A stretch of 64,000 bases of DNA from Candidatus Limnocylindrus sp. (GTDB taxonomy: Bacteria; Chloroflexota; Limnocylindria; Limnocylindrales; Limnocylindraceae). This document shows positions 54,931 to 64,000 of the stretch, piece after piece. The position numbers were made by a program, and so were the translations under genes. The notes below the pieces were generated by a model. That model had not been told where the DNA came from. It made no database searches and was given only the letters and a program-made list of their open reading frames with translations. The stretch lies in NCBI GenBank assembly GCA_040397215.1, contig JBBAWK010000001.1. One strand, 5' to 3'. Positions within the stretch are counted from its first letter, which is position 1, and the number at the start of each line of letters is the position of its first letter.

Positions 54931-55830
54931 ATGCAGATCGGATTTATCGGCCTCGGCAAGATGGGCGCCAACATGGTGAGGCGACTGGTCCGAAGCGGCC
55001 ACGACGTGGCAATTTGGAACCGCTCCCGTGAGAAGACCGATGAGGTCGCAAAAGAGGGTGCCAAGCCGACCTACACCGTGAAGGAGCTGGTTGACAGCCT
55101 GACCTCCCCAAAGCGCGTCTGGGTCATGGTGCCGAGCGGTGATGCCACCGAGGCGATGATCGATGAGTTGATCCCCCTTCTCACTAAGGGCGACACCATC
55201 ATTGATGGCGGCAACTCCAACTTCCACGACACCATCCGCCGACACGAGAAGCTCGCCGGTCACGGCATTCACTTCATTGACGCTGGAACCTCTGGTGGCG
55301 TGTGGGGCCTCGAGAACGGCTACTGCATGATGGTCGGCGGCGACGCTGAGCCAGTAAAGGCGCTTGAGCCAATTTTCATCACTCTCGCGCCAAAGGACGG
55401 CTACATGCACTGCGGCGGCTCGGGCGCTGGCCACTACGTGAAGATGGTGCACAACGGTATTGAGTACGGGATGATGCAGTCGTACGCCGAGGGGTTTGAG
55501 ATCCTCGCGAAGTCGCGCTACAAGCTCGATCTCGCCAAGGTGAGCGACCTCTGGATGCAGGGCTCGGTCGTCCGCAGCTGGCTCCTTGAGCTCGCCGCGC
55601 GCGCCTTCCGCGCCGAAGGTAGCGACCTGAAGGGGATCAAGGGCTGGGTCGCCGACTCGGGCGAGGGCCGTTGGACGGTACAGGAGGCAATCGACCTTGA
55701 TGTGCCAGCCCCGCTCATCACCCTTTCACTGCTGACACGCTTCCGTTCGCGACAGGACGACTCGTACTCGGCCAAGGTGCTCGCTGCGCTGCGCAATCAG
55801 TTCGGTGGCCACTCGGTAAAGTCGGAGTGA
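54931..55830 (+). CDS. gnd: 6-phosphogluconate dehydrogenase, decarboxylating, short (about 300 aa) form
   Basis: MQIGFIGLGKMGANM Rossmann motif and GGNSNFHD. GGGGGAG SD before the ATG at 54931. Confidence 0.85.
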   Translation: MQIGFIGLGKMGANMVRRLVRSGHDVAIWNRSREKTDEVAKEGAKPTYTVKELVDSLTSPKRVWVMVPSGDATEAMIDELIPLLTKGDTIIDGGNSNFHDTIRRHEKLAGHGIHFIDAGTSGGVWGLENGYCMMVGGDAEPVKALEPIFITLAPKDGYMHCGGSGAGHYVKMVHNGIEYGMMQSYAEGFEILAKSRYKLDLAKVSDLWMQGSVVRSWLLELAARAFRAEGSDLKGIKGWVADSGEGRWTVQEAIDLDVPAPLITLSLLTRFRSRQDDSYSAKVLAALRNQFGGHSVKSE

Positions 55831-57443
55831 GTCCGCAAACTCCCGCAGATGGACACGCGACAATTCGTGATTTGCGGCTCGGCCGCAAGACGCGAAAGCC
55901 TGCGGCAAAGAGGGGTAAGAAGAACCCCCTGCGCGTCGGTCTACGCATTGAGCGTGTCCCTGATCCCCATGTGGTGGTCCTCTTCGGCGCGACGGGTGAC
56001 CTTGCACACCGAAAGGTGGTGCCCGCACTCTTCCACCTCTGGATCGGCAACCTGCTGCCAGAGCGATTCGCACTCGTCTGTTTTGGTCGACGACCGTTCA
56101 GCGATCAAGAGATTCGTACGGCGTTACGTACCTCTCTCGATAAGCATGCGCGCATCACCCCTGTAGACGATGAGCGGTGGGCGGCGTTCGCTTCGCGCAT
56201 CACCTACCACCAGGGCGGATTCGATGAACCAGATGCATACGCATCGCTGTCAACGAAACTTGCCGCCATCGACACGGAGTCCGGCACAGATGGGAATCGC
56301 CTCTACTACCTCGCCACTCCGGCCTCATCGTTCCCAGAGATCGTGCGAGGGCTTGGTGCTGCAGGGCTCGATCACGAGAAGGCCGATAGTGGCTGGCGTC
56401 GCATCGTTATTGAGAAGCCGTTCGGCCGTGACCTTGAGACGGCGGTAAAGCTCAACCGCGAGGTTGGCAAGGTGTTCCGCGAGTCGCAGGTCTATCGCAT
56501 CGACCACTACCTTGGCAAGGAGACGGTGCGCAACATCTTGATCTTCCGCTTCGGCAACCTGATCTTTGAGCCGATCTGGCATCGCCGCTATATCGACCAT
56601 GTGCAGATCACCGTGGCAGAGTCAATCGGCGTTGAGGGGCGTGGCGCCTTCTACGAGGAGACGGGCGCGCTGCGCGACATCTTGCAGAACCACCTCCTTC
56701 AGCTGCTCACCCTTGTGGCGATGGAGCCACCAGCGAATCTCGAGGCTGAAGCCCTGCGCGATGAGAAGGTGAAGGTGCTCCGTGCGATTCGGCAGATCCC
56801 AATTGAGGAGGTTGATCAATCGGTGGTTCGCGGTCAGTACGGCCCAGGTTGGGTTGGTGCCACCGAAACGCCCGGCTACCGCAGCGAGCCAGCGGTCGAC
56901 TCCGCCAGCGAAACCGAAACGTTCGTTGCCGCTCGACTTGAGATTGACGACTGGCGTTGGGCGGGCGTCCCCTTCTACCTGCGCGCCGGAAAGCGCCTCC
57001 CGAAGCGGGCCACCGAGATCGCCATCCAGTTCAAGGATGTACCGCAGCGTCTCTTTCCCACGGTTGGGGATGAGCCGGAGCCGAACCTGCTCGTCATTCG
57101 CATTCAGCCTGACGAGGGAATTCAACTCCGCTTCGCAGCGAAGGTCCCTGGCTTGGGGATCGACGTTCGCCCAGTAAACATGGACTTCGCCTACGGCTCC
57201 GCCTTCACTGTGGAGAGCCCCGACGCCTACGAGACGCTGATCCTTGACGCACTGTTGGGCGATGCGTCGCTCTTCACGCGCGCCGACGAGGTTGAGGCGG
57301 CCTGGCGGATCGTTGATCCGATCATCGATGCCTGGGTGGCCGGCCCAGAGCCAGAGATGCCGAACTACACGTCGGGGACCTGGGGTCCCGAGGCGGCAGA
57401 CGAGCTCCTTACACGAGAGGGGCGCCGCTGGCGCCGCCTCTAA
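55827..57443 (+). CDS. zwf: Glucose-6-phosphate 1-dehydrogenase
   Basis: LFGATGDLAHRK and RIDHYLGKE. About 45-aa basic N-terminal extension if the GTGA-overlapping start at 55827 is used. Confidence 0.9.
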   Translation: MSPQTPADGHATIRDLRLGRKTRKPAAKRGKKNPLRVGLRIERVPDPHVVVLFGATGDLAHRKVVPALFHLWIGNLLPERFALVCFGRRPFSDQEIRTALRTSLDKHARITPVDDERWAAFASRITYHQGGFDEPDAYASLSTKLAAIDTESGTDGNRLYYLATPASSFPEIVRGLGAAGLDHEKADSGWRRIVIEKPFGRDLETAVKLNREVGKVFRESQVYRIDHYLGKETVRNILIFRFGNLIFEPIWHRRYIDHVQITVAESIGVEGRGAFYEETGALRDILQNHLLQLLTLVAMEPPANLEAEALRDEKVKVLRAIRQIPIEEVDQSVVRGQYGPGWVGATETPGYRSEPAVDSASETETFVAARLEIDDWRWAGVPFYLRAGKRLPKRATEIAIQFKDVPQRLFPTVGDEPEPNLLVIRIQPDEGIQLRFAAKVPGLGIDVRPVNMDFAYGSAFTVESPDAYETLILDALLGDASLFTRADEVEAAWRIVDPIIDAWVAGPEPEMPNYTSGTWGPEAADELLTREGRRWRRL

Positions 57444-57464
57444 GCCGGCGGGGGCGAGACACTG

Positions 57465-58646
57465 ATGGGCCTTAACTCCATCCTCGCCTCAACACTGCGT
57501 TGGACCTCGAGCGCCACCACCGTCGCTGAAGCCGAGGAGCTCCTCGCTAAGCTCTGGGCGAGCAGCGAGGCGCGCCGCTTCCTTGTCTCTGACTCACCTG
57601 CAGATTCAACCACAGGCGAACCGCTCGCCGTGCGTACCGGTGTGATGAACCTTGCCGTGGTTGCCAGCGGTGCAGAGCGCGCTACGCACGCGGCATCCAT
57701 CATGGCGACGCTACCGCGCAACCCGTCGCGCACCCTCTTCATCGTTCCGCGCGACCCAGAGGGTCCAGCCACCTTTGCCGCCCGACTTGAGGTCTTCTGC
57801 GCCGTCACGCCGCGTGGTGACGGCACCTCCGCCTGCACCGAGCTGCTCTGGATCGATGTTGGCGGTCCCGCGGCGCATCATCTCGCCAGCATCGTGCCAC
57901 CACTCTCGCTCCATGACCTGCCGACACTTCTCTGGTGGGATGCCCCAGTAAACGCGGCAGAGAGTGATGTGCGGCAGCTCCTTCGCGGTGTTGACCGCGT
58001 CATCATTGACGGCGCCACGCAGCCAGGCGACGGACTTGCAACGATTCGTTCTCTCTCCGCGGCGGCTGAAAACGCTGGAGTTGCACTCACGGACTTTGCG
58101 CTCCTGCGCCAGGGGCGGTGGCGTGACTCTATCGCCACCATGTTTGACGACGTATCAGCCGCACCCTTCCTGAACGCCATCAACACGATCTCTATTGACT
58201 ACTCGGGAGGGAAGGGGGACAGTGCCTCCATCAACGTCGTGCGCCCTGCGTATCACGTGGCGTGGCTCGCCTCGCGGATCAAGGCCTCAATCCAGACGCC
58301 GCTGCACCTGGGCGATGACGCTGGGTGGCGTGCCAAGCTCCGCGATCCAGCGCGACAGCCAATCGCGGTTGAGTTGAACCCTGTTGATTCGGTGCTCGGT
58401 ACGGGCACAACGATCGCCGTGCGCATTGCTGCGGATCGACGTGGTGATCACTTTGATCTTGAGGTTCGTGCCGACTCAACCTCCACCCGTGCAATCGCCA
58501 AGATCAACGGAGCAGTGGTACATGAGCGAACCTTCCAGGCACCACGTTGGACCGAGTCATCCCTACTGAGTGAGTCGCTCGAGTTCGGCGAAGTGGACCC
58601 ACTCTCTCCGGCAATTCTCCGCACCATGAGCCTGCTAATCGGATGA
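57465..58646 (+). CDS. opcA: OpcA, glucose-6-phosphate dehydrogenase assembly/effector protein
   Basis: Its position between zwf and pgl and its size (393 aa) fit the actinobacterial/cyanobacterial opcA arrangement. The sequence is not strongly motif-bearing, so the call rests mainly on context. Confidence 0.75.
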   Translation: MGLNSILASTLRWTSSATTVAEAEELLAKLWASSEARRFLVSDSPADSTTGEPLAVRTGVMNLAVVASGAERATHAASIMATLPRNPSRTLFIVPRDPEGPATFAARLEVFCAVTPRGDGTSACTELLWIDVGGPAAHHLASIVPPLSLHDLPTLLWWDAPVNAAESDVRQLLRGVDRVIIDGATQPGDGLATIRSLSAAAENAGVALTDFALLRQGRWRDSIATMFDDVSAAPFLNAINTISIDYSGGKGDSASINVVRPAYHVAWLASRIKASIQTPLHLGDDAGWRAKLRDPARQPIAVELNPVDSVLGTGTTIAVRIAADRRGDHFDLEVRADSTSTRAIAKINGAVVHERTFQAPRWTESSLLSESLEFGEVDPLSPAILRTMSLLIG

Positions 58647-59413
58647 GCGGCCCGACGGTTCGTATCCTGCGCGACGCTCAGGGCGTTGCAGAGGCAGCTG
58701 CGGACCGAGTGATTGAAGCGGCAACCACTGCCGTGGCCGCGCGTGGAGTCTTCCATCTCTGTACCACTGGCGGCTCAACTCCGGCGGCGCTCTATCGCGC
58801 ACTGCGTGAGCCAGCACGAGCCGCCCGCATGCCGTGGACGCAGACGCAGATCTGGTTCGGCGATGACCGCTTTGTGCCACGTGCCGACCCGCTCTCGAAC
58901 ATCTACCCGCTCGACACCCAGATGCTGAGTGCAAGCGCCGATGGCGCTCCCTCACCGCTTTCGCCAAGCGCCGTGCACCCTTGGCCAACAAGCGCCGCTG
59001 ACGCACCAACCGCCGTGAGCGCCTACCTCGAGGAGCTGCGTGGCGCTGGGGTGCCGCATACGTCGGCGGGCTTCCCCATCTTCGATCTGGTGCTCATCGG
59101 CATTGGCGGCGACGGCCACTGCCTGAGCGTCTTCCCTGGTTCGCCCCTCGCCCTCGACGGGGCGCCGGTCGCCGCGGGTGTCCCAGCCCCCACCCACATT
59201 GAGCCACACCTGCCGCGCCTCTCCTTCTCGCTCGGCGCGATCACGGGCGCCCGTGCGGTGCTTGCCCTGGCCCCTGGCGCTGGGAAGGCCGAAGCGCTTG
59301 CGCGCATCTTCAACAGCACAACAGCAGTCATCGACGCGCCAGCGAAGGCGGCGCTGGTCCCAACGGCAATATGGCTCCTCGATACGGCCTCGGCCGCGAT
59401 CTTGCCCTCATAG
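58643..59413 (+). CDS. pgl: 6-phosphogluconolactonase
   Basis: TGGSTPAALY and IGIGGDGHCLSVFPGSP. Confidence 0.87.
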   Translation: MSGPTVRILRDAQGVAEAAADRVIEAATTAVAARGVFHLCTTGGSTPAALYRALREPARAARMPWTQTQIWFGDDRFVPRADPLSNIYPLDTQMLSASADGAPSPLSPSAVHPWPTSAADAPTAVSAYLEELRGAGVPHTSAGFPIFDLVLIGIGGDGHCLSVFPGSPLALDGAPVAAGVPAPTHIEPHLPRLSFSLGAITGARAVLALAPGAGKAEALARIFNSTTAVIDAPAKAALVPTAIWLLDTASAAILPS

Positions 59414-59427
59414 CCTTTGACGGCCCT

Positions 59428-60195
59428 TCAAGGGACGCTGATCCCCCACTTCGCACCAAGCGCGCGATGTGCCGCCTGCAGCTCACTCGGTGAAAGCGAC
59501 CGCCCCCAAATCACCACCTCCATGATGGTGCCGACGAAATACTTCGCTGTCCCCGCAACGAACATCCCGCCGATCCAGTTCATGCTCTCTGTCGTTGTGA
59601 TGTTGAAGGCCGTCTCCGCCCCACCGTTGTACTGAAAGGCGTCAGCCGCTCCTGCAGTGGTGCGCACCGTAGTGATGGTCAGTCCGGTGACAGTACGAGC
59701 AGTTGTCGCGCCAACCGATTGACCATTGCTGTACATCCGTAGCCGACCGGACTCCATGGTGATACCAGAGAAGCGAGTCCTGCTCCCCATGAGCGGATGG
59801 CTGAGCCCATCGTTGCTTTGTCGAAAGACCAGCATTACCGTCATCGGCTCTAAGGGGATGCTGGCTGGCAACTGCACCGCCGCACCGCTGAACTGCAGGC
59901 CGGTCACTCCCGCTGTCGCCGTTGGGTAGGGTTGATATGGTCCTGCGCTTACGGGCGCGTGTTGCGCTTGGCCCGACTTGTCGAACCAGTAGCGAAGGCG
60001 CGACGAGAGCGCCATGGTTCCCGCCTCTGCGGTGTCGTACCAGAGGAGGAGCCCGCTGTTGACGCCACCAGGAGCGCCCCACGCGCCAGAGGTGAGCGAT
60101 AGGTCGAGCCGAGGCGACCAGGCGGCGCCCGAGGTTGCTAGGGCGATGAGCGCGAGTGGCACGGCAACTCGCAGCCACAAACGGTGCCGACTCAC
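59428..60195 (-). CDS. Secreted LamG/concanavalin-like (laminin G 3-type) domain protein
   Basis: GTG at 60195 overlaps the upstream stop (GTGA). N-terminus VSRHRLWLRVAVPLALIALATSGAAWSP is signal-peptide-like. The C-terminal ...NWIGGMFVAGTAKYFVGTIMEVVIWGRSLSPSELQAAHRAL is typical of the LamG jelly-roll end. The track ORF to 60342 overlaps the upstream gene and is rejected. Confidence 0.6.
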   Translation of the reverse strand: MSRHRLWLRVAVPLALIALATSGAAWSPRLDLSLTSGAWGAPGGVNSGLLLWYDTAEAGTMALSSRLRYWFDKSGQAQHAPVSAGPYQPYPTATAGVTGLQFSGAAVQLPASIPLEPMTVMLVFRQSNDGLSHPLMGSRTRFSGITMESGRLRMYSNGQSVGATTARTVTGLTITTVRTTAGAADAFQYNGGAETAFNITTTESMNWIGGMFVAGTAKYFVGTIMEVVIWGRSLSPSELQAAHRALGAKWGISVP

Positions 60196-61037
60196 TCTGG
60201 CCCCCAGCGCAGCGGGAGTGAGATGGTCGCATTGGCGGCAGTGATACTCCCGAGGAGGGTTACTTGGATCTGGCACTCGCTCGCGGCGGCGCCCGCAGAG
60301 AGTGACGCGAGTCGCCCCGTTGCAAGATTCGCCGCACTCCACGCTGCAGTGAAGAGGTCAGCGGAAGCGGTCCAGGTTGTGCTGCCAACTGGGCGACAGG
60401 TGCTGGTAAGCCGCAGTGATCGGGCCATGCCACTCGTCGCGATCGGCGCGAATCGGTCCGGATCAACGCGCAGTGTATTGGTGGTGCCAGCACACTCGCC
60501 CGCCACCCCCGTTGGGCACGGCGTGAGCGTCAGCGTCCACGTTGCCCGTCCTCCAGGGAGGAGCTGGCCGTGCGCATCGGCACCCACCAACATTGGGCCG
60601 CTCATCTCCACGCGCGCCCCTAGCGCGGAGGTGATGCCCACGTTGATGCGCCTCCCGGCGCTGAACTGTGCCGCAACGAGGTCGAGCGGGAACGAGGTGA
60701 TGAGGCCGGTGGGGATGACGGCGGCGAGCCCACCTAGCACCGCCGCGTCGGAGATGCGCTCGGCGTCGGGGCTGAGGCTGGCGTCACCCTGTGTTCGACG
60801 CCACCCCGCACCCCGCTGAATGACGCGGTGTAGAAGCAACTGACCATCACTCGGTCGCTCCACCAACACCACATCGCCCACCTCACCGCCTCGCCACAGT
60901 CGCGCGGTGAGGACCAGGTCACCATCGCGAATGCTTGGCGACATTGAGTTTCCTGAAATAACGAGCATTCGCAGTCCGGCAAGCTGCGTTGCAAGGAGAA
61001 GCGTGAGCGCGGCGGCGCACCAGCGGGCTCTGCTCAC
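60192..61037 (-). CDS. SipW-type (archaeal/ER-type) signal peptidase I fused to a C-terminal TasA/camelysin-like domain
   Basis: N-terminal TM helix. Catalytic-box-like ISGNSMSPSI (Ser), LLLHRVI (His), TQGDASLSPD, GGLAAVIPTG. Residues ~122-281 (LVAAQFSAGRRINVGITS...PGGRATWTLTLT...QIQVTLLGSITAAN) align by eye with the upstream TasA-like protein. Confidence 0.7.
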   Translation of the reverse strand: MSRARWCAAALTLLLATQLAGLRMLVISGNSMSPSIRDGDLVLTARLWRGGEVGDVVLVERPSDGQLLLHRVIQRGAGWRRTQGDASLSPDAERISDAAVLGGLAAVIPTGLITSFPLDLVAAQFSAGRRINVGITSALGARVEMSGPMLVGADAHGQLLPGGRATWTLTLTPCPTGVAGECAGTTNTLRVDPDRFAPIATSGMARSLRLTSTCRPVGSTTWTASADLFTAAWSAANLATGRLASLSAGAAASECQIQVTLLGSITAANATISLPLRWGPE

Positions 61038-61651
61038 TGGGTCTTGTTGCGCGCCTCGAAGGTGAAGGTCGCAGCAACCGAAGAGTCAGCGCCTGTAGTG
61101 GCACTTGCTGGCAACGTGAAGGTGAACGTGTAGGCCGCACTCTTTGCCGTCACACCAGTCACCGCACCACCATTCTGTGAGCTCCATACCGCACCGATCG
61201 GCGCTGCAAATGAGCCGTACGCCGAGAGACCGTTCAGTGCGCCGGAATAGAGCGTCTCCGCGCCCCCACCGCCAATGCTGCGCGTGATCGTTACCTGCAG
61301 TGCAGCGCCAAGTCCAGAGGGGGCGGGTGACGTACCAGTGATATCACTCCATACCGCGATCTCGGTCAGGTTTGATGGCGTCGTCACGGTAGATTCATTC
61401 AGCACCGTGATGGTTTGCGTGAAGGTGGCGCCCGGGCCAATGTTGGTCAGCGTTGCGCCACCGAAGGTGAGCTGCTGGACGCCAACCGTACTCAACGAGA
61501 CGACTCCCGAGGTGGCTCCGCCAGTGACGGGCGTCGTCGCAGTGAATGCGGCGCTGGTTCGACCGACCGTTGCGCCAATTACGAGCGCACCCGCCACCAC
61601 CACCGCCCGCACGGCGTGACGTGACGTCAAGAGAACTCCCTGTGTTTGCAT
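61034..61651 (-). CDS. TasA/camelysin-family secreted protein with SipW-dependent-type signal peptide
   Basis: 205 aa. The signal region ...VVAGALVIGATVGRTSAAFTATT... parallels ...GGGTWAAFND... of B. subtilis TasA (recalled from memory). NIGPGATFTQTITVLNES and the C-terminal VAATFTFEARNKTQ also match family hallmarks. AGGAG lies 5 nt before the ATG. Confidence 0.65.
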   Translation of the reverse strand: MQTQGVLLTSRHAVRAVVVAGALVIGATVGRTSAAFTATTPVTGGATSGVVSLSTVGVQQLTFGGATLTNIGPGATFTQTITVLNESTVTTPSNLTEIAVWSDITGTSPAPSGLGAALQVTITRSIGGGGAETLYSGALNGLSAYGSFAAPIGAVWSSQNGGAVTGVTAKSAAYTFTFTLPASATTGADSSVAATFTFEARNKTQ

Positions 61652-61729: not shown

Positions 61730-62818
61730 CTACTCCAGCGGTAGTGCGATCCCGCTTGGTGCCCAGCTCTCGCCGATACGATCGATCTCTGCCGGTAGGT
61801 TGGCGATGGCACGCTCGAGAATGGTCTTGTTCACCGCAAGTCCGCTGATGGCAACTGTTGACACGTCAAGGACACCCTGTGGCGCCGGCCAGATGGAGGC
61901 GTTGAATTGGTCGATTGACCAGGCGAGGCTGTCGCCGAATCGATCCGTCTCACCACCCTGTTCGAAGACTGCCGCGCACTCACTCGGTTGATCTCTGCAG
62001 AAGGCGAGTCCGTCGGTGAGCCCAATCAGAATAAGCGCTGCTGCGATGCTGAAATCTTCATCTGCGATGGCGCTCTTCTCCATCCAGATCGCAAGGCCGC
62101 GAACGCCGGAAGTGTCACCGAGATTAATCACGTTGATGCCGTCAGGGCCAACGGGGAGCCCGCTCTTTCGTGAGATGAATTCTTGGGCACGTGCGAGGCC
62201 GTCGTACTGCGTCAGAAAGGCGGCGGCGTAGGTCCCGTCATAGAGCGGGGTGAGGTCAAGGGGAACAGACGAGTCCGCTGGGAATTTTGCAGTCACGTTC
62301 TCGGCACCCTCACGCGCGAGCAGAGCCAGGAGCGGCACCTCGTCGCCAACAATGCCCTGAACCAGAATCGTCGAGCCGCTCAGATCCGCCGCGGTGGCGG
62401 CTCCTGAGGCGGGGGCAACGAGCACCATTGAAGTTTTCTGCTGCAGATTGGCGATCATGACCAACGACTCGCGTGCGGTTGCAGATGCGACCACGGCATC
62501 TGGCGTGGCGATGTACAGCTGGAGACGCGACTTGGAGGCCACGAGGGGGAATGGGGCCTCGCCAGCGGTTGGAGCAACCTGGTCCAGCGTGATGCCTGCC
62601 GCAGCAATCGTTTCGGAGGCGGCGGCGTAGGCGAGTGGCGCCGTCAACACGTCTGGGGCGCCAGGCAAATGCACCGTTACGGCAATCTCTTTGGAGGGGC
62701 GAAGCTCACCGGCGATCGATGAGGCAGACGGCTCCACGCTCCCACCGACTGGGGGTCGGCACGCAACTGCGATCAGCGCGATGGAGAGAAGAGCGACGAT
62801 GCTGTGACGTTTGGTCAC
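61730..62818 (-). CDS. Lipoprotein resembling an NMT1/SsuA-type ABC substrate-binding protein
   Basis: Lipobox in [20 protein letters not shown]. Two-lobe periplasmic-binding-protein-like sequence. GTG start overlaps the pstB stop (GTGA). Family assignment made by eye only. Confidence 0.55.
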
Positions 62819-63705
62819 CCGAATCGCCCCTGAATGTAGCCTTCGGTCAGCGCCTGCTTCGGATTCGTGAACATCTCTGCGGTTGGGCCAGTCTCAACGA
62901 GGTAACCCGCTCGATCGTCGTCCATCGAGAAGAAGGCGGTCTCATCGGAGACGCGCGACGCCTGCTGCATGTTGTGCGTGACGATCACGATCGTGTACTC
63001 CGCAGCAAGATCACGGATCAGCTCCTCGATCTTGAGGGTGGCGACCGGATCAAGCGCCGAGCACGGCTCGTCCATCAACACGACACGCGGCTTCACCGCA
63101 ATGGTGCGCGCAATGCAGAGACGCTGCTGCTGCCCGCCTGAGAGGGATGTCCCAGGTTGCTTGAGCTTCTCCTTTACCTCGTCCCAGAGCGCTGCGCGGC
63201 GGAGCGAATCCTCGACGATCCCCTCAATCTCGGATTTTGACGTTCCGCCGGTCAGGCGAAGTCCACTCGAAACGTTCTCGCTAATCGACATCGTTGGGAA
63301 CGGGTTCGGCTTCTGGAAGACCATCCCCACGACCCGGCGGGCACGAACGGGATCCACGTTTGAGCTGTAGAGGTCAACGCCGTCAAGCGAGATGGAGCCA
63401 GAGACGGTTGCACCTGGGAGCGTCTCGTGCATGCGATTGATCGTACGAATCAGCGTGGACTTTCCGCAGCCCGATGGCCCGATGAGAGCGGTGACGCTCT
63501 TTGGTCGAACCGCCAACGTCACATCCTTCACAGCGCGGAACGCGCCGTACCGTGCTGAGACGTTCTCAAGGACCAGGCGGCCGGCATCAGTCTCGCTGGC
63601 GGCAGCACGGGAGGTTGCCTGCGCTGCGGGTCGTGCCGCAGCCTGGGCGAGTTCGTCTTTTGCACCCGCTGGTGAAGAATTGGTGCTTCGCTTCTCGGTT
63701 GCCAT
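62815..63705 (-). CDS. pstB: Phosphate ABC transporter ATP-binding protein PstB (with about 35-aa N-terminal extension)
   Basis: [53 protein letters not shown], with C-terminal YIQGRFG. Confidence 0.93.
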
Positions 63706-63716
63706 GTTGCCCCTCC

Positions 63717-64000
63717 TTACGCTGTTCTGCTATTGACGGTTCGGCCTCGAACCAGCACGTTAATGGTGAGTGCGATGACCATCAAGATCAGCGCCGTTGC
63801 CCACGCCTGCCCGATCAGAAGATCGCTCGCCGCGGCAGCATACTGATAGATCACAATCGGCATCGCGTTCATAGTGGTGCTGAAATCGAGCCAGTTCTCC
63901 GCGTTGGTGCCTCGGGCCGTCATCAGAAGCGGCGCCGTTTCGCCGAGGGCACGGCTAAAGGCGAGAATCACGCCGGTGAGGATGCCAGGAAGTGCAGTCC
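63717..64000 (-). CDS. pstA: Phosphate ABC transporter permease PstA, 3' part (gene continues beyond the right edge)
   Basis: ...[26 protein letters not shown]... is the PstA EAA-loop region. The frame stays open to nt 64000. Confidence 0.8.

Follow-up and report, generated by a model that had tools for sequence, protein, structure and literature searches.

A SipW-type signal peptidase of Candidatus Limnocylindrus joined in one chain to a domain that starts with a copy of a substrate cleavage and donor-strand motif

Fibres assembled from TasA-type subunits by donor-strand complementation are today regarded as a common matrix and pilus system of both bacteria and archaea. In Bacillus subtilis, the tapA-sipW-tasA operon encodes the jelly-roll subunit TasA beside SipW, a signal peptidase of the endoplasmic reticulum (ER), Ser/His type (PMC9674648, PMC10269814, PMC4551309). 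Residues 28-38 form the donor strand of TasA, with F29, I32 and F39 as key contacts (PMC9674648), and an aromatic residue at mature position 2, F29 in TasA and W2 in AbpX, is the 'clamp' of this strand (bioRxiv 10.64898/2026.01.04.697558; PMC9674648). Because of its P2' Phe, TasA is cut poorly by LepB and depends on SipW (PMC10269814). TapA is a minor (1:100), cysteine-containing component which donates the first strand (PMC4551309, PMC9674648). The haloarchaeal Tafi locus encodes the signal peptidase TafD, the DUF5305 protein TafG, the proposed anchor TafF, composed of a transmembrane (TM) helix and a jelly-roll, and the tip protein TafC (PMC12337348). Here we analysed a stretch of 64,000 nucleotides from the Chloroflexota bacterium Candidatus Limnocylindrus sp. 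(GenBank assembly GCA_040397215.1, contig JBBAWK010000001.1; the whole stretch is called the window), in which the second of three adjacent genes encodes a SipW-like peptidase joined to a second extracytoplasmic domain.

The three genes of the window encode a TasA-like protein of 205 amino acids (aa), the peptidase fusion and a Laminin_G_3 (LamG) protein, and are referred to as genes 1 to 3. As in B. subtilis, an ER-type peptidase is encoded beside a TasA-like jelly-roll subunit, the subunit has a mature x-Phe N-terminus with [AT]-S-G at +13 to +15 and a donor strand, an accessory protein resembles TapA in its donor-strand-like N-terminus and conserved cysteines, and the aromatic P2' of the substrate explains the dedicated peptidase. 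Unlike in B. subtilis, the Limnocylindria peptidase lacks the C-terminal TM helix and forms one covalent chain with an accessory-like domain, the genes run in the order subunit-peptidase-LamG, no homologue of TapA is present and the host belongs to Chloroflexota. The Tafi locus also encodes a TasA-superfamily donor-strand pilus, a dedicated peptidase, a tip and a membrane-anchored beta-sandwich together (PMC12337348), but its parts are separate and secreted mostly by Tat, whereas here the peptidase and the beta-rich domain form one chain and no DUF5305 is detected. This type of operon, with a TasA-like subunit, an ER-type peptidase and accessory proteins, is already known and its presence in Limnocylindria is new. 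The covalent union of a peptidase and a substrate-like domain without an intervening signal peptide is new as well, and literature searches returned no description of such an arrangement.

A preliminary description of this locus had proposed that the peptidase is fused to a second TasA-like domain beginning with a copy of the cleavage motif, at window positions 60192-60674 (-). These positions correspond to residues 122-281 and the stop codon of the 281-aa open reading frame (ORF) 61037..60192, and the sequence quoted for the fusion, ...GGLAAVIPTGLITSFPLDLV-AAQF-SAGRRINVGITSALGARV..., is exact. The peptidase is truly joined to a second extracytoplasmic domain, and the union is conserved as a single ORF across relatives. 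The 281-aa protein has 225 database relatives from many independent metagenome assemblies; the best 120 of them are 250-282 aa long (most 281-282) and 76-95% identical, and seven further 50%-identity clusters with 41-46% identity possess the same two-part architecture. Further members at ~36-47% identity came from a profile search and from scanning one genome per species, and the single-ORF fusion was found in 21 species-level genomes, all of Limnocylindria-type Chloroflexota, among them a metagenome-assembled genome (MAG; locus L017) of Candidatus Limnocylindrus sp. whose copy is 100% identical. A frameshift or assembly artefact is ruled out by the uninterrupted frame in hundreds of independent assemblies and the 21 genomes, from 100% to ~40% identity. 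A 95% identical fusion gene also occurs in locus L009 (CAMAXG010000004.1), titled 'Thermoflexus hugenholtzii JAD2 isolate MH-08apr19-222', an organism label which looks wrong for a Limnocylindrus-like sequence.

The C-terminal domain on its own was sought by searching 1.84 billion representatives exhaustively with HMMER, the C-terminal 166 residues being the query. Nine clusters were retrieved at E <= 1e-10. Seven of these are fusions of 250-307 aa with the match at the C-terminal end behind a peptidase core, while the other two are an 82-aa fragment (P0218) and a long repetitive protein (P0220), the latter matching only over short stretches of low identity. No stand-alone homologue was found among these representatives, the rest of the matches being compositionally biased giant proteins; the domain was seen only in fusion with this peptidase, and in Limnocylindria alone. 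P0218 combines an unrelated N-terminus with the last 50 residues of the domain, and P0221, a truncated fusion of 256 aa which scored 3e-9, follows the family to residue ~180 and then diverges in a frameshift-like manner. Both likely reflect assembly or sequencing errors and not split genes.

The N-terminal part of the fusion is assigned by its sequence to the Ser/His (ER/SipW) signal peptidases and not to the Ser/Lys LepB type. In a family alignment of 42 sequences spanning 36-94% identity, Ser31, His70, Asp85 and Asp91 are invariant in all members. The Ser box ISGNSMSPS, with invariant G29, S31, M32 and P34, is situated near the N-terminal TM anchor, whose best 15-residue Kyte-Doolittle mean is 1.9-2.9 across the family. 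The LLLHRV segment carries invariant H70 and R71 and supplies His as the general base instead of the LepB-type Lys, and in the GDASLSPD box G84, D85, A86, S87 and D91 are invariant. The core is short (~90 aa), and in the window protein Peptidase_S24 (23.1 bits, cut-off 23.3) and Peptidase_S26 (22.3 bits, cut-off 22.9) of Pfam lie just under threshold, and the NCBIfam model of archaeal-type signal peptidase I, TIGR02228, scores 33.5 bits, below its cut-off of 51.85; some relatives pass, with a best E of 2.9e-7. When the family profile was compared with PDB sequences, SEC11A/C were the best solved relatives (SEC11A 7P2P, E 2e-5), and only the peptidase part was matched, nothing being retrieved for the C-terminal domain. 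Foldseek comparison of the AlphaFold2 (AF2) model of the fusion matched SipA, LexA and SEC11C to the peptidase half. The best confident match of the N-terminal domain, the Streptococcus pyogenes protein SipA/LepA (4n31, probability 1.0, rank 2 by E-value), is a signal-peptidase fold used for pilus assembly; it has lost its catalytic residues and serves sortase pili as a chaperone, whereas those of the Limnocylindria enzymes are invariant. Peptidase-only relatives from other phyla are 165-180 aa long, and their core is followed at once by a C-terminal TM helix (L033, L035, L047, L048, L051, L059). The Limnocylindria fusions have no such helix and carry a linker of 12-14 aa in its place.

As had been proposed, a copy of the cleavage and donor-strand motif opens the C-terminal domain. 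The P3 and P1 residues of this copy are small, P2' is aromatic and a strand pattern follows, and the motif is significant at the level of the family. With Phe125 numbered as P2' in the 42 sequences, P7-P4 are variable, P3 is Ala in 23, Val in 18 and Thr in one, P2 is mostly Ala or Thr, and P1 is Ala in 37 and Thr in five. P1' is variable, mostly Gln, P2' is Phe in all 42, and P3' is Thr in 24, Ser in 17 and Ala in one. Farther on, P8', P10' and P12' are hydrophobic, P14' is Ser in 38, P15' is Ala or Gly and P17' is Gly throughout. The 205-aa family shows, in the same register, Ala at P1, Phe at P2', Thr/Ser at P3', Val/Ile/Leu at P8', Ser at P14' and Gly at P15'. A motif profile built from the mature N-termini of the 205-aa and LamG families, with the fusion left out, aligned without gaps to fusion residues 120-138 (hhalign score 23.5, E 5.6e-4), and none of 300 column shuffles reached this score (null mean 9.8, maximum 17.9). 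The by-eye pairing of AAQFSA with AAFTAT and of ITS with ATS falls within this gapless register. The 205-aa N-termini alone gave E 0.003 (0/300 shuffles), and the LamG N-termini alone aligned at the same place without significance (32/300 shuffles). The best match of the motif hidden Markov model (HMM) fell on the motif in 12 of 15 diverse fusion members. The window protein alone scored 3.4 bits (E ~2), and A-x-F-[ST] is within chance in a single sequence; at the family level the motif, as judged from these profile statistics, is not a chance match. Constraint at P3, P1, P2' and P3' together with variation at P7-P4 is the pattern of the -3/-1 rule of signal peptidase I (SPase I) combined with the P2' aromatic of TasA. 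The maintenance of small P3 and P1 residues speaks for cleavage, since an uncleaved linker would have no reason to keep them. In the AF2 model the stretch 121-126 is flexible (pLDDT < 50), as expected of a linear motif. The spanning tryptic peptide of the predicted site Ala123↓Gln124 (↓ marks cleavage) is ISDAAVLGGLAAVIPTGLITSFPLDLVAAQFSAGR, and the semi-tryptic peptide of the cleaved form would be QFSAGR.

The segment ahead of the motif had been suggested to act both as the usual C-terminal anchor of SipW and as the h-region of an internal signal peptide, and this part of the proposal fails. After the conserved V-I-P the linker comprises only 12-14 residues, with Arg or His in most clades, for example TSHIFHAMRAAA. 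The stretch GGLAAVIPTGLITSFPLDLVAA is moderately hydrophobic only in the clade of the window, and its first part coincides with the final strand of the peptidase core (residues 100-108 in the AF2 model). In most other clades the best 19-residue hydropathy of the pre-motif segment falls to ~1.0-1.3. A TM helix or h-region before the motif is ruled out by hydropathy and charge across clades, and AF2 and hydropathy across clades revealed no TM helix after residue 22 of the fusion. The linker holds no conserved TM helix or h-region, and the C-terminal domain can be exported only by way of the enzyme's N-terminal anchor.

AF2 modelling of the fusion from the 42-sequence alignment gave a pLDDT of 74 and a pTM of 0.54. 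The C-terminal domain is predicted to fold into nine to ten strands and one helix over residues 129-280, with pLDDT ~80-90 in the strands. Cys174, 182, 214 and 255 are conserved in the 42 sequences, which fits an extracytoplasmic disulfide-bonded domain, and the domain is probably disulfide-stabilised. Its designation as a second TasA-like domain is not supported: there is no significant similarity to TasA-family proteins past the first ~20 residues, no TasA among the top 50 Foldseek matches, and no Pfam or NCBIfam match in the window protein (for Pfam, in the 42 family members also). The Foldseek search of the whole two-domain model returned generic beta-sandwiches (CBM, FimA, PHM) with low probability. 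The by-eye match of the remainder of the domain to the 205-aa protein is collinear and not significant (BLASTP E 0.7). Profile comparison with the 205-aa family gave hhalign E 0.17 and a probability of 0.35% over 129 collinear columns, and comparison with TasA 8AUR (hhalign E 0.41) or, over the whole domain, with the LamG protein was likewise not significant. This non-significant 129-column alignment pairs LLPGGRATWTLTLT with IGPGATFTQTITVL, a 'PG' strand which lies at nearly equal distance from the N-terminus in TasA, and predicted secondary structure along it agrees at 55% of positions against a mean of 41% for shifted registers. The collinearity and the secondary-structure agreement are compatible with a distant relationship to TasA and do not establish one. 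The HMM of the domain found no match in the ORFs of 30 loci from other phyla.

Comparison with other lineages revealed both separate and fused arrangements. Loci with the corresponding partners on separate genes exist in other phyla, with a TasA-like gene, a 170-aa peptidase with C-terminal TM helix and a downstream substrate carrying a TWSA↓FS-type site (L047, L033, L035). In five Actinomycetota lineages (L041/L042, L040, L038, L032, L052) the peptidase is fused to a passenger in a single ORF, in the order peptidase, C-terminal TM helix, positively charged Arg-rich loop, second TM helix, canonical site and passenger. The internal sites SSWA↓AFASS, GTLA↓YFTD, ASG↓RFTAE and RSSA↓AFVAT are of the [ST]-x-A↓x-[FY] type. 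The passengers are LamG_3, Ig-like or Pro/Thr-rich, Pfam identifying Peptidase_S26 with Laminin_G_3 in L040 and L042 and with Ig-like domains in L038; L041 and L042 (the latter a Cellulomonas ORF) are independent MAG assemblies with identical tails. The complete internal signal peptide of these predicted proteins strongly implies that the passenger is cut off, and they have the look of enzyme-substrate polyproteins. They resemble the Limnocylindria protein in combining a SipW-like peptidase and a cognate site in one ORF, and the Laminin_G_3 passenger of L040 and L042 belongs to the family of gene 3. They keep the C-terminal TM helix, charged loop and second TM helix, whereas the Limnocylindria fusion has none of these and its passenger is a different, lineage-specific domain. 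Fusion of the peptidase to a minor substrate is recurrent, and the Limnocylindria case is its most reduced version.

Two more ORFs from these comparisons are recorded. A 490-aa ORF of Chloroflexia (L037:2698-4167), whose peptidase has two TasA-like genes upstream, carries a C-terminal extension of ~230 aa without TM helix which begins TTGGWYVDAHEIDMAMSSG (TTGGWYVD), and it may be a second, independent TM-less fusion. In Acidimicrobiales a 994-aa ORF (L031:526-3510) combines a SipW-like peptidase with a long region of multiple TM helices, recalling the '10-TM' dedicated signal peptidases which reportedly occur beside abpX genes.

The 205-aa protein had been called TasA-like, and structure prediction agrees. 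Its AF2 model (pLDDT 72, pTM 0.70; residues 1-47 disordered, core pLDDT 77-95) has TasA 5OF2 as the top Foldseek match in the PDB (E 2.1e-4, probability 1.0, TM-score 0.44-0.47, 199 columns), and on this model the protein is a TasA-like jelly-roll. Its family aligns to TasA 8AUR by hhalign collinearly from Ala35 to FEARN, which stands opposite FEATQ of TasA (E 0.07), and the mature end AFTATTPVTGGATSGVVSLS (residues 35-54) aligns without gaps to TasA AFNDIKSKDATFASGTLDLS, the fibre sequence of TasA having been verified against 8AUR. At the predicted site GRTSA↓AFTAT, T32, A34, A35 and F36 are invariant in the family. Unlike B. subtilis TasA, the protein falls below the thresholds of Pfam Peptidase_M73 and NCBIfam TasA; the window protein has no Pfam or NCBIfam match, and the Peptidase_M73/TasA models touch two of 24 relatives below threshold (E 0.036 and 0.22). 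A candidate internal donor-strand repeat was rejected, as it was absent once the motif HMM was freed of internal GPGA[ST]F segments. Gene 3 passes the Pfam Laminin_G_3 threshold, and all seven orthologues examined show A-x-W-[ST] after the signal peptide followed by an alternating hydrophobic strand, with sites such as TSGA↓AWSPRLDLSLTSG and SVAA↓QWSAALSLSVNAG. Its product is a third predicted SipW-type substrate, possibly a fibre tip or nucleator. As the motif is present in all three products of the operon, all carry the signature of a cognate substrate, and the aromatic P2' of these substrates is the reason why a dedicated SipW/Sec11-type peptidase would be needed.

Together the three genes would constitute a minimal fibre system of the TasA type in Ca. 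Limnocylindrus, assembled by donor-strand complementation. The major subunit would come from gene 1, and gene 2 would supply the SipW/Sec11-type peptidase dedicated to substrates with aromatic P2'. The product of gene 3 would be a lectin-like LamG protein whose N-terminus serves as a donor strand, with a probable role as tip or nucleator comparable to that of TapA or AbpB. Four points lead us to favour, tentatively, the reading that the C-terminal domain is a tethered third substrate, cut at Ala123↓Gln124 to release a 16-kDa minor subunit: P3 and P1 are kept small, Phe at P2' is invariant, the catalytic residues are intact, and the Actinomycetota fusions offer a parallel. The N-terminal anchor would insert the fusion with both domains outside, the linker would emerge from the core close to the active site, at the level of the membrane surface, and the chain would be cut in cis or by a neighbouring molecule. 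The new N-terminus, x-Phe-Ser/Thr, would then act as a donor strand, and the released domain would serve as a minor subunit, for instance an initiator or terminator comparable to TapA. As the passenger is encoded with a low-abundance enzyme, this subunit would be made 1:1 with it. Stated in full, the signal peptidase would be the leader of its own 16-kDa passenger, cut at an internal A-x-A↓x-F without h-region, and the passenger would prime or cap a TasA-type fibre; this fuller proposal is made with somewhat more reserve.

Cleavage, the position of the cut and the role of the released domain are deduced from sequence, and self-cleavage is plausible. LexA, UmuD and lambda cI (S24, clan SF) share the fold and cleave themselves by a Ser dyad in cis or trans, the N-terminal domain of the fusion matches Peptidase_S24, and LexA structures are in the Foldseek list; the S24 enzymes differ in being cytoplasmic, in their Ser/Lys pair and in having the site N-terminal to the catalytic domain. 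We know of no self-cleaving S26 signal peptidase. Several observations weigh against a tethered substrate. No h-region or TM helix precedes the predicted site, so its presentation to the active site would be unconventional, and the linker may be too short for cleavage in cis. P1 is Thr in five of the 42 sequences, and Thr at P1 is uncommon for SPase I. Past its start, the C-terminal domain does not resemble TasA-family proteins significantly, so that only the first ~20 residues and the gene context speak for a role as a fibre subunit. In the AF2 model, residues 129-137 form a strand within the fold of the domain itself, and a permanently self-complemented domain fits this equally well.

The principal rival, which we consider unlikely though worth serious attention, is that the C-terminal domain stays uncleaved on the peptidase and, held at the membrane through the N-terminal helix of the enzyme, makes up the end of the fibre nearest the cell. 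Either its AxF strand would pass to the first 205-aa subunit, or a subunit's donor strand would take the place of the domain's own cis strand, and signal-peptide removal and fibre incorporation would then reside on one polypeptide. The proposed Tafi anchor TafF, a TM helix with a jelly-roll, is encoded beside TafD, and the fusion has the same parts in one chain (PMC12337348). The lack of a TM helix or h-region ahead of the motif and the self-complemented look of the domain, with residues 129-137 folded into it, also agree with an anchor, and the conserved three-gene module holds no other anchor gene. Such an anchor leaves the small P3 and P1 residues of all 42 sequences unexplained, the full internal signal peptides of the Actinomycetota fusions imply release, the acceptor groove is hypothetical, and a TasA-like fold of the domain is not supported. 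More speculative still is a role of the uncleaved domain as an usher-like platform which couples signal-peptide removal to donor-strand exchange at the membrane.

It is improbable that the domain is instead an accessory or regulatory part of the peptidase, a beta-sandwich supporting or gating the catalytic domain like SPC22/23 of the eukaryotic complex or DUF5305/TafG of archaea and Anaerolinea, with AxF as a pseudosubstrate or plain linker. SPase I-DUF5305 fusions are found in Chloroflexota (Anaerolinea thermophila E8MZY1), where they likewise unite a peptidase and an extracellular beta-sandwich in a TasA-like fibre context (bioRxiv 10.64898/2026.01.04.697558). ER-type peptidases act together with a beta-sandwich partner on the luminal side, and the absence of significant TasA similarity in the C-terminal domain suits this explanation too. 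DUF5305, however, comprises two TM helices together with a cytoplasmic domain and is read as an accessory subunit, whereas the Limnocylindria domain lacks both, bears no DUF5305 signature (no match at E <= 10 in the 42 fusion members, nor any other Pfam match) and starts with a substrate-type motif. A gapless match to the mature N-termini of substrates, reaching 15 residues past the site, would be unexpected of a structural accessory domain, and the AF2 model has a low pTM and no confident packing between the two domains.

A coincidental AxF[ST] in an Ala-rich protein, in which case the domain would have an unrelated surface function, is very improbable. A.[FW][ST] is expected, by estimate, ~0.2 times per protein of such composition, and the low score of the single window protein against the motif HMM is in keeping with chance; against it stand the invariance of Phe125, the position-specific match across lineages at ~40% identity, the shuffle test of the profiles and the position of the best HMM match in most of the diverse members. 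Joining of two genes by a sequencing, assembly or frameshift error is practically excluded, given the same uninterrupted frame in hundreds of metagenome assemblies and 21 genomes.

A peptidase joined to a substrate-like minor component offers a testable handle on how such fibres are started, anchored and kept in stoichiometry, and the outcome would be either self-processing in S26 or a combined peptidase and anchor. If a cleaved passenger is confirmed, it would together with the Actinomycetota fusions point to a general design in which a low-copy fibre initiator is made 1:1 with its processing enzyme. The Actinomycetota peptidase-substrate fusions are currently annotated only as 'S24/S26 family peptidase' or 'hypothetical protein'. 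The Limnocylindria, abundant planktonic freshwater Chloroflexota, carry a compact putative fibre operon which looks vertically inherited.

Table 1. Features of the three-gene locus and of the fusion ORFs used for comparison. Positions refer to the window unless another locus is named; (-), minus strand.
Feature	Position	Remarks
Gene 1	61034..61651 (-)	205-aa TasA-like secreted protein, presumed major fibre subunit
Gene 1 signal peptide, residues 1-34	61550-61651 (-)	predicted cleavage TSA↓AF
Gene 1 donor-strand region AFTATTPVTGGATSGVVSLS	61490-61549 (-)	
Gene 2	60192..61037 (-)	281-aa peptidase fusion protein, GTG start
N-terminal TM signal-anchor, residues 3-22	60972..61031 (-)	AF2 helix 3-20
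ER/SipW-type signal peptidase I core, residues 23-110	60708..60971 (-)	
Ser31	60945-60947 (-)	catalytic residue
His70	60828-60830 (-)	catalytic residue
Asp85	60783-60785 (-)	catalytic residue
Asp91	60765-60767 (-)	catalytic residue
Linker GLITSFPLDLVAA, residues 111-123	60669..60707 (-)	ends in predicted P3-P1 V-A-A; not a TM helix
Donor-strand / P' motif copy QFSAGRRINVGITSALG, residues 124-140	60618..60668 (-)	invariant Phe125 at P2'
C-terminal domain, 158 aa	60195..60668 (-)	16.0 kDa if released; all-beta with one helix, four conserved Cys
Gene 3	59428..60195 (-)	255-aa Laminin_G_3 protein, GTG start
Gene 3 signal peptide, residues 1-24	60124-60195 (-)	predicted cleavage SGA↓AWSP
Actinomycetota fusion ORF	L040:2713-4473	
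Actinomycetota fusion ORF	L042:2872-4236	
Actinomycetota fusion ORF	L038:2638-6339	
Actinomycetota fusion ORF	L032:2839-3825	
Actinomycetota fusion ORF	L052:160-1548	

The organization of the locus is conserved (Table 1). Gene 3 is listed as a 304-aa ORF (60342..59428), and comparison with relatives places its real start at the GTG at 60195. Both junctions (61034-61037 and 60192-60195) read GTGA, in which the GTG start overlaps the TGA stop of the preceding gene, and these overlaps suggest translational coupling of the three genes. The order of ~205, ~285 and ~250 aa and the GTGA overlaps are kept in every contig examined, the most divergent included. A scan of the locus found no promoter-like or terminator-like sites inside it above shuffle expectation. 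In every contig examined (L001, L003, L004, L006, L008; window 55827-59413) the module adjoins the pentose-phosphate genes opcA-zwf-pgl, while the other flank (window 61730-63971) depends on the clade and holds either a pst-like phosphate ABC transporter or thymidine kinase with an ornithine/diaminopimelate decarboxylase. The module looks vertically inherited within Limnocylindria and not mobile. Directly upstream of gene 1 lies a 362-aa ORF (61730-62818, minus strand) with a lipoprotein-like N-terminus (LIAVAC) and a weak NMT1/THI5-like match, which overlaps the stop of the gene for a PstB-like ATPase.

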